Position numbers and translations under genes: made by a program. Under the pieces are notes generated by a model that saw only the letters and a list, made by a program, of their open reading frames with translations, ran no database searches and was not told the DNA's origin. A stretch of DNA of 62,847 nucleotides, filler included, from Stramenopiles sp. TOSAG23-6 (lineage: Eukaryota), in NCBI GenBank assembly GCA_900128565.1. It is 38 parts of 38 records of this genome, joined end to end, with 100 filler letters (N's around TTAATTAATTAA, not from the genome) between each part and the next. Parts side by side here need not be neighbours in the genome. Positions count along the whole stretch, not along the records: positions 51,410 to 52,958 come from LT638889.1; 37 more parts are not named here. The stretch is one strand, 5' to 3'. How positions within the stretch are numbered: the stretch's first letter is position 1; the number at the start of each line of letters is the position of its first letter. Of the stretch, positions 51,477-52,634 are shown in pieces.

Positions 51477-52634
51477 TCTACGATGCCACTCGTTTTACAA
51501 GTCACGGATTTCGCCATGCTGATTTCATATATCCTGACGGTACAACACCAAATCGAAAGATGCTAAACAATTTTCTAAAATTATGTGAAGAAACGAGTGG
51601 TGCTATTGCAATTCACTGCAAAGCAGGTTTAGGCCGTACTGGTAGCTGTATAGGTTGTTATGTGATGAAGCACTATCATTGGACAGCAGCTGAATTTATT
51701 GGATGGGTACGATTGGCACGTCCTGGAAGTGTAATTGCACGTTTTCAAGATTGAATTTCGGATTTATTTAATTTTTTTTTTGGTAGAACATTTTGTACCT
51801 AACGATTTTTTTTACAAAAAAAAAACATATTTTTTTACAATACATGGGCCTCAACAAGAATGGCTAGAGTTCATACAAGAGGAAATGTGGAAAGCTGGGA
51901 CGGAATATCGAAGACGTAAAAAATGTAAAATTGTTAATGGTATAGAGCATCAGGAGGAGGCAAGTGACGTATGCAATCCTAACAAGGATGATACCAAAAA
52001 CATTCATCTGAATATTCGCGATCTTAAAGATAATAGTAATTTAGGTAAAAGTCCAGGAACTCCCACTAGAAATGCACGTGCTTCAAGAAAGGCACAGGCC
52101 GTTGCGGTGTCAAGAGATATTGAGACTATCCTTAGTACAAATAATCCAAAAAATAGTAATTTGAATCCTCATAACATGCGCATAACGAATGGTAAAAAAG
52201 TTGCCTCAAAAGTATGTGTTAAACGCAAACTAAAGCAGTCGACAAAACAATCGTCTCTAAGACTTCGAATTTCAGCGGAAACGGCAAATAATTCTGCTTT
52301 TGGTATGAAAGTTTTAGAAAAAATGAAACTATTTGCAGAAGAAGCTCAGGCTGGGCGAAAGAGGCATTCACTACTGAGGAAAAAAAACAAATTGGAATCG
52401 AATTATGTAGAATCAAAAGGTAATTCTTCAAACAGTATTGTTTTACTTGCACAAAAAAAAACTCATTCAAAAATCACACAAGGAGATGTTCTTCGAGCAA
52501 GAAAATGCCCGACAAGAAAATCTCCAAGAATTAGGTACAAAACATCGCCAGGAATTCAAACTCAACGCAATAACAATGATGAAAGAAATACAGAAGATAT
52601 GGTAGAATGTTTGTTACCTCAAAAAGCTTTATAA
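51477..52634 (+). CDS. CDC14: CDC14 dual-specificity phosphatase; GC-AT intron 51737-51845
   Basis: YDATRF, DGTTP, IAIHCKAGLGRTG, RPGSVI|GPQQ. Confidence 0.93.

Follow-up and report, generated by a model that had tools for sequence, protein, structure and literature searches.

The CDC14 gene of Stramenopiles sp. TOSAG23-6 raises the question of whether an intron that begins with GC and ends with AT is removed precisely and, if so, by which splicing machinery. The window, the whole stretch of 62,847 nt that was analysed, consists of about 38 contigs of ~1.55 kb with N spacers between them, so that adjacency in the window does not mean adjacency in the genome; eight identical contigs lie in a row at 1664-14859 and another identical pair at 38186-41393. 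The CDC14 contig (51410-52958; G000:C5863) is the sole copy in the assembly, and no longer contig was found. It includes the 3' part of a preceding intron of the same family (51410..51476, plus strand; donor off the contig, family motif at 51432), an exon encoding the catalytic HCKAGLGRTG and ending in RPGSVI (51477..51736, plus strand), the 109-nt GC...AT intron (51737..51845, plus strand) and the last coding exon (51846..52634, plus strand), which begins with GPQQ and whose C-terminal motifs are common to P0003 and P0004. The end of the preceding intron, placed by family consensus alone, is probably at CAT.

The CDC14 intron begins with GCACGTTTT and ends with ACAATACAT. Its 5' splice site, ATT/GCACGTTT (51734..51744, plus strand; positions -3 to +8, the slash marking the boundary), is the segment that would pair with U1. 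Further downstream are the family motif TTTTGTACCTAAC (51791..51803, plus strand), within which the A at 51802, at a distance of 43 nt from the final base of the intron, is a putative branch adenosine, and a 3' end motif comprising a T-run and ACAATACAT (51830..51845, plus strand; family consensus TTTTYCAMAATACAT).

A sequence-only reading had proposed this intron and named RNA across the junction and CDC14 orthologues as checks; both agree with it. In the polyA RNA run X1 one contig (record 4, 308 nt, depth 3.2) aligns to 51634-51735 (102 nt) and 51845-52037 (193 nt) with 0 mismatches and 0 gaps, skipping exactly 109 bases. The four runs compared with the CDC14 contig are assembled contigs rather than reads and carry no strand information, and the small run shares are no evidence of habitat. 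The junction is spanned in one of the four (X1, a single contig) and not in X2, X3 or X4, and no DNA run among them covers it; a contig of X2 extends 25 nt into the intron without mismatch (unspliced RNA or DNA).

Excision restores the reading ...RPGSVIGPQQ..., as had been claimed. Among CDC14 homologues 106 of 120 match the RPG motif pattern, in 104 of these 106 Gly directly follows the [VI][ILV] pair, and RPGS/RPGC matches have no insertion at the intron site. Metagenomes contain 80 CDC14 loci, all distant, and RPGS-x-x is read directly into GP in 78 of them; many may be transcripts, so they say little about the age of the intron, and none (best 64% identity) is close enough for an empty-site comparison.

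The absence of a GT or AG alternative also held, as none giving the same product occurs among shifts of -4 to +4. The statement that there is no terminal repeat to slide along did not: the cut slides by -1 and +1, and TG..CA, GC..AT and CA..TG yield the same mRNA, so that this junction alone is no proof of GC..AT. A shift of -2 (AT..AC-like) would change Ile to Asn and one of +2 would change Gly to Ala. The second GC donor announced at 28296 on the minus strand is present (28244..28296), with AT/GCATGTTTT and the start of the family motif; the contig stops inside this intron, and both genomic copies stop at the same place. Taken together, the RNA contig, the orthologues and the family-wide register test described below support the CDC14 GC...AT intron as real and spliced out.

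Intron family and register of the cut

The nearest other family member is 84% identical to the CDC14 intron. The family motif TTTTGTACCTAAC occurs in 7,547 exact copies in the 21.1-Mb assembly, a number that includes duplicated contigs, and its reversed control once; many contigs are duplicated or mirrored (C13/C14, C2), so that genome-wide counts are inflated. The motif is followed by AATACAT 4,109 times and by AATACAG 169 times; upstream of it stands a GT donor in ~4,940 cases and a GC donor in ~107 (~2% GC). Viral contigs gave 0 matches to it. Copies are related but diverged: among 60 sampled, nearest-neighbour identity has a median of 87% and a maximum of 96%, against baselines of 73% for random pairs and 61% for shuffled sequences (AT-rich). 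Linked variants, donor +4/+10 with end -11/-8, define two subfamilies (p 3e-7 for +4 with -8).

Within 649 kb (the 38 window contigs and 60 fetched stretches) 201 introns were called; the matrices covered donor positions +1 to +10 and end positions -16 to -3, and the last two bases were left free. Since the matrices were trained on the family the set is biased towards it, and among its 43 non-AT ends some miscalls are evident. The introns have a median length of 99 nt. The 5' ends are GT in 183 cases, AT in 8, GC in 6, GA in 2 and GG in 2, and the 3' ends AT in 158, TT in 15, GT in 8, AG in 7, AC in 5, AA in 5 and other in 3. AT is the normal 3' end in this genome (158 of 201, ~79%).

Joining the flanks at the called ends leaves the frame open in 168 of 176 testable cases, compared with 53-59 of 176 when the ends are placed off frame and 85 of 175 when the next AG downstream is used; 25 introns with short, N-bearing or intron-bearing flanks were dropped from this test. 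In the 47 introns that have an AG between motif and end, the frame is kept at the called end in 46 and at the AG in 19. AGs inside family introns are bypassed. Orientation relative to the coding strand (n = 178) is sense-only open in 138 introns, antisense-only in 1, both in 32 and neither in 7. Among 30 introns without the motif in the middle, frame and ends are still kept in 27. Thirty GC-donor loci were also fetched; 23 had callable ends, the frame was kept in 22 of these (the off-frame control is weak here, 25 of 46 being open with 60-nt flanks) and the end was AT in 16. The CDC14 GC..AT intron is thus not exceptional in its genome.

A few further features of the called set were recorded. 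Among introns with A at +1 a final C occurs in 2 of 8, compared with 4 of 193 others (p 0.019); this observation, made on the AT-starting donors of L033 and L058, hints at first/last base A-C pairing as in AT-AC introns. Intron positions +3 and +4 match downstream exon positions +3 and +4 slightly more often than expected (92 vs 86, p 0.019; 73 vs 57, p 0.003), which may reflect a few longer repeats (e.g., one of 8 nt in L056). A long intron-like stretch at 45058-45405 of the window (plus strand) contains five tandem copies of the inner motif, which suggests that the module was duplicated internally.

The register was examined with MCM5 (L031:5012-8467), whose exons were placed by a profile of 44 homologues and which is less biased than the matrix-called set. 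All of its 12 introns have family-type donors and sense orientation. Homology fixes 10 of the ends, 8 as AT and 2 as AG, so that AG is still in use (2 of the 12 introns are GT-AG). The other two junctions, 2 and 12, fall in variable regions, and the consensus served to assign their ends (GT and AT, respectively). A shift of -1 is excluded by junction 1 (Arg in 44/44 homologues would become Gly, found in 0/44), and a shift of +1 by three others: at junction 3 Thr (37/39) would become Ala (0), at junction 8 Ser (37/44) would become Cys (0) and at junction 10 Ile (42/44) would become Val (0). The AT..AC-like -2 register is ruled out by CDC14 together with MCM5 junctions 1 and 5. With -1 and +1 excluded in MCM5, the cut falls before the G and, if one mechanism serves the family, GC..AT would be the consistent register for the CDC14 intron.

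The public model P0125 (656 aa) is identical to MCM5 of this genome, but it runs through intron sequence and loses conserved residues, whereas splicing according to the family yields a protein of 723 aa that can be aligned with homologues; gene finders that assume GT-AG mis-model genes here. The source label of P0125 begins with GSMAST32, and an 18S fragment of this genome is presumably stramenopile-like.

U1 snRNA and the splicing machinery

The sole U1 snRNA found in the assembly has AAACGUACAUG where the canonical one has AUACUUACCUG. The match begins with AAACGUACAUGG (Rfam consensus AUACUUACCUGG) and extends from position 1 to position 166 of the model, with an E value of 2.7e-11 and a score of 54.1 bits, which is less than the Rfam gathering score of 69.5. 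Its 5' end departs from the canonical form at positions 2 (U>A), 5 (U>G) and 9 (C>A). In the usual U1-donor register position 2 faces +7 and position 9 faces -1. Position 5 faces intron +4, according to the accessible text of PMC10581693. The changes therefore lie opposite +7 T, +4 C/T and exon -1 T, which have frequencies of 98, 96 and 85% in the called introns (family donor consensus [C]AT/GTAYGTTT), and all three pair with the family donor, the G at position 5 with both C and T. For 192 of the 201 donors this U1 is the better binder, the mean over donors being -9.0 kcal/mol against -2.0 for canonical U1. The CDC14 donor forms 8 Watson-Crick pairs with it (-5.2 kcal/mol) compared with 5 with canonical U1 (+0.5). 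The canonical U1 11-mer has 7 genomic matches (control 10), none in a U1 gene, and as the assembly is incomplete a canonical U1 may be missing from it. On the best reading, the predicted U1 gene co-evolved with the family donors.

The genes for U5, U2, U1 and U4 form one cluster (L006:9-645; G000:C1146), of which a second copy is identical over the first 664 nt. The spacers between these head-to-tail genes measure just 2, 23 and 5 nt and leave no room for separate promoters, so that one precursor cut into four snRNAs is possible. Relatives of the U5-U2 cluster gave 0 matches in metagenome contigs. A pairing of U1 nt 13-26 with one variant of the end motif (L006:361-374, -9.5 kcal/mol) was rejected, being located in U1 stems and failing for the other variant; it is probably due to chance.

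The rest of the core appears ordinary. U2 GUAGUA, U5 loop 1 and U6 ACAGAGA are all standard, and the CTAAC core of the family motif fits U2 GUAGUA; U6 is on a contig that also carries a family intron. The alpha-finger of Prp8 is identical to the human one, and its gene (L053/L054) is intronless, as is that of a U2AF65-like protein (L094), which presumably is without the Trp of the U2AF35-binding motif. The absence of splicing genes weighs little in this incomplete assembly: U2AF35 was not among 16 zf-CCCH matches, METTL16 gave 0 candidates and the search for U1-C gave a single weak match, within a 509-aa frame that we take not to resemble U1-C. Of two motif patterns for U2AF35, the first had one match, false and off-frame in another gene, and the second had 0. 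The METTL16 result is in line with +4 pyrimidine donors, going by the accessible text of PMC10581693.

The CDC14 intron thus combines the precise removal and the U1 complementarity of major-spliceosome introns with the lack of a terminal AG, and behaves as a major-spliceosome intron that fails in this last feature only. The best reading, to which we give a probability of about 0.8, is that the major (U2-type) spliceosome splices it out, in a stramenopile of MAST-3 type in which GT...AT is dominant and U1 is altered. At the GC donor U1 would rely on the remaining eight pairs, which is how ordinary GC-AG introns are recognised; standard U2 would pair with CCTAAC ~40 nt upstream of the intron end, and the 3' end would be set by the conserved ~15-nt end motif and not by a scan to the first AG. 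A(-2) and the pyrimidine at -3 would keep their usual contacts, G(-1) being dispensable. In the yeast P-complex, as described in the available part of 10.1101/212811, the near-universal AG is accounted for by two base pairs, one between G(-1) and G(+1) and one between A(-2) and the branch A; compared with this rule, A(-2) and the pyrimidine at -3 are mostly kept here whereas G(-1) is not. Thousands of G(+1)...U(-1) introns handled with standard Prp8, U2, U5 and U6 would constitute a natural test of whether the AG rule resides in the core or in early factors and proofreading.

Origin of the family and competing explanations

The last two bases of these introns covary with the last two of the preceding exon. 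The dinucleotides match in 145 cases, compared with 102.5 after permutation (p 0.0002, the floor with 5,000 permutations), and the effect is limited to positions -1 (170 vs 154) and -2 (160 vs 128), with none at -3 to -6. GT ends follow an exon ending in GT in 8 of 8 cases, TT ends follow TT in 10 of 15 and AG ends follow AG in 4 of 7. Such a match, frequent in non-AT ends, is the signature expected of a 2-bp target duplication, judged by the locus-specific duplication test used in the accessible text of PMC9860276. Introners would be expected to have a terminal inverted repeat of 6 nt or more; the intron ends here are inverted (GTAT/ATAC) and accompanied by T/A runs with a bulge, the mean end pairing being -2.7 kcal/mol. 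Many similar introns at unrelated sites, as in introners, are represented by the 7,547 motif copies.

At CDC14 itself the duplication is not intact, TT preceding the intron and AT ending it. The exon there must end in a T-containing Ile codon, and Asn never occurs among homologues at the codon before the intron, so the duplicated bases cannot have been AT. The A(-2) of the intron would then have been gained later or supplied by the element rather than left over from the duplication, which suggests that AT is a preferred 3' signal.

The covariation, the inverted GTAT/ATAC ends and the two subfamilies point to a MITE-like introner. It is probable, in our judgement, that the introns derive from such an element with its own donor, that their last two bases came from a 2-bp target duplication, in most cases AT, and that U1 then co-evolved. 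No transposase with the family ends was found in a search confined to DDE_Tnp_4, which returned two distinct genes without them; these Harbinger-like open frames are in L220 and L221, and one adjoins a divergent gene. Almost all full copies are in open frames and in sense orientation, a pattern equally compatible with spread through RNA and with a DNA transposon.

The same splicing mechanism could act on introns of another origin. If the ends were inherited vertically and drifted with the spliceosome, as in Entamoeba, the family appearance would result from selection on donor, branch and end motifs; the copies are indeed not near-identical, 27 of 30 introns keep frame and ends without the middle motif, and no autonomous element was found. 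Drift would nevertheless have to account for the locus-specific agreement of the exon end with the intron end, which extends over exactly two bases (the test of PMC9860276, accessible text), for linked donor and end variants that define subfamilies and for the inverted ends, and we regard it as unlikely. The minor (U12-type) spliceosome, transformed and tolerant of odd ends as in Physarum, might seem suggested by the strongly conserved donor and branch motifs and by the excess of final C in A(+1) introns. However, the donor matches U1 and not the U11-type ATCC, the RTATCCTT donor and TCCTTAAC branch site of minor introns do not occur as intron features here, GTATCC and TCCTTAAC are not enriched in introns, and U6atac, U12 and U11 had no match in the assembly (incomplete, with prokaryotes as controls); this alternative is barely credible.

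Two other proposals would remove the segment by other means. A different enzyme could cut in a non-standard register (TG..CA or CA..TG) or at paired ends, as in euglenid nonconventional introns, given that the CDC14 junction slides one base each way and that there is weak complementarity between the two consensus ends (mean -2.7 kcal/mol). MCM5 excludes both -1 and +1, U1 matches in the normal register, and the ends of the CDC14 intron lack the stable pairing of the euglenid type (-0.1 kcal/mol) yet are cut exactly, which makes such an enzyme very improbable. The X1 RNA contig could otherwise stem from an allele or strain lacking the insertion, or the segment could be excised from DNA like a ciliate IES; IES ends carry a short direct repeat, there is one of that kind here, and no DNA run lies over the junction. 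The strict sense orientation (138 vs 1; 12 of 12 in MCM5), the thousands of copies in essential genes and the X2 contig reaching 25 nt into the intron, so that the intron-bearing form exists in a related sample, leave this equally remote.

The best reading is therefore one of introner-derived introns on which the major spliceosome acts, its U1 having co-evolved and its requirement for AG being relaxed, and suggests a splicing machine retuned to a spreading intron family. We hold more tentatively, and on balance doubt, that an introner takeover rewrote the splicing code on both sides, with three positions of U1 retuned, U2AF35 lost as the reader of AG, the ~15-nt motif read by a new or altered factor and the core (U2, U5, U6, Prp8) standard. 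If true, this would be a eukaryote with GT-AT as the rule instead of GT-AG and with a nearly free last intron base. The change in U1 would represent a rare natural case of co-evolution between an snRNA and its splice sites, seemingly tied to a spreading intron family, and the reshaping of a host spliceosome by a mobile element becomes testable.

Comparison with known splicing systems

The major spliceosome of other organisms handles GC-AG introns, ~1-2% of donors having C at +2 and an otherwise good match to U1. The CDC14 intron has the same type of donor and differs in its AT 3' end, and is the counterpart of the ordinary GC-AG intron in this genome.

The statements that follow refer to the accessible portions of the papers cited. 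The closest parallel for the 3' end is found in Fritillaria borealis and F. pellucida, where AT is the commonest 3' end (34% and 44%, respectively; PMC13326754). These introns depend on a major spliceosome without minor snRNAs, probably the situation here as well (no U6atac, U12 or U11 match in the incomplete assembly), and share with the present family a YAY triplet upstream of the 5' site, another at the 3' end and a proposed transposon origin; unlike in this family, their 5' ends are mostly AG, the U1 5' end is unchanged and U2AF is duplicated (PMC13326754). Here a homogeneous family has GT donors (~2% GC) and AT at the 3' end in ~79%, the 5' end of U1 is rewritten, and U2AF35 was not found in the incomplete assembly.

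Changes in the U1 5' end are rare. ACUUACC is invariant in 236 of the 240 fungal genomes in which U1 was found (PMC10581693) and is kept in Giardia (PMC3510501). Co-evolved U1 snRNAs are described for Entamoeba (ACAAAC), Mastigamoeba and Physarum, in which the U1 5' end is altered, as here, to pair with an atypical genome-wide donor (10.1101/2022.06.08.495308). In Entamoeba the change concerns intron +3/+4, whereas here it faces -1, +4 and +7, the exon side included; the accessible text mentions no non-AG 3' dinucleotides for Entamoeba, in contrast to the AT ends and the repeated family of this genome (10.1101/2022.06.08.495308).

Introners of Micromonas, Aureococcus and Chrysochromulina resemble the present family in carrying the donor and taking the acceptor from the target duplication, as well as in their short inverted ends and GC or GT donors (PMC9860276, PMC11282704). 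Their AG derives from duplications of 3-9 bp, whereas here the presumed duplication is of 2 bp, in most cases AT, and divergence between copies is greater (PMC9860276, PMC11282704). In Amoebophrya, another marine protist, the majority of introns are likewise non-canonical and repeat-derived introner elements; U1 is reported absent there, whereas here it is present and complementary to the donors (PMC11282704).

For stramenopiles or MAST no paper on GT-AT introns or an altered U1 was found among open main texts. Term searches of the main texts of PMC5778133, PMC8163842, PMC12614181 and 10.64898/2026.04.17.719054, as far as accessible, met no mention of splice-site types, and the accessible part of PMC4383343 holds nothing specific to this case. 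AT-ending transposon-derived introns and co-evolved U1 are thus each known, and no report was found of both together or in stramenopiles. What is new here is the altered U1 alongside an AT-ending family; the single GC-AT junction in CDC14 is ordinary within its genome, and its interest is in the system that it served to test.
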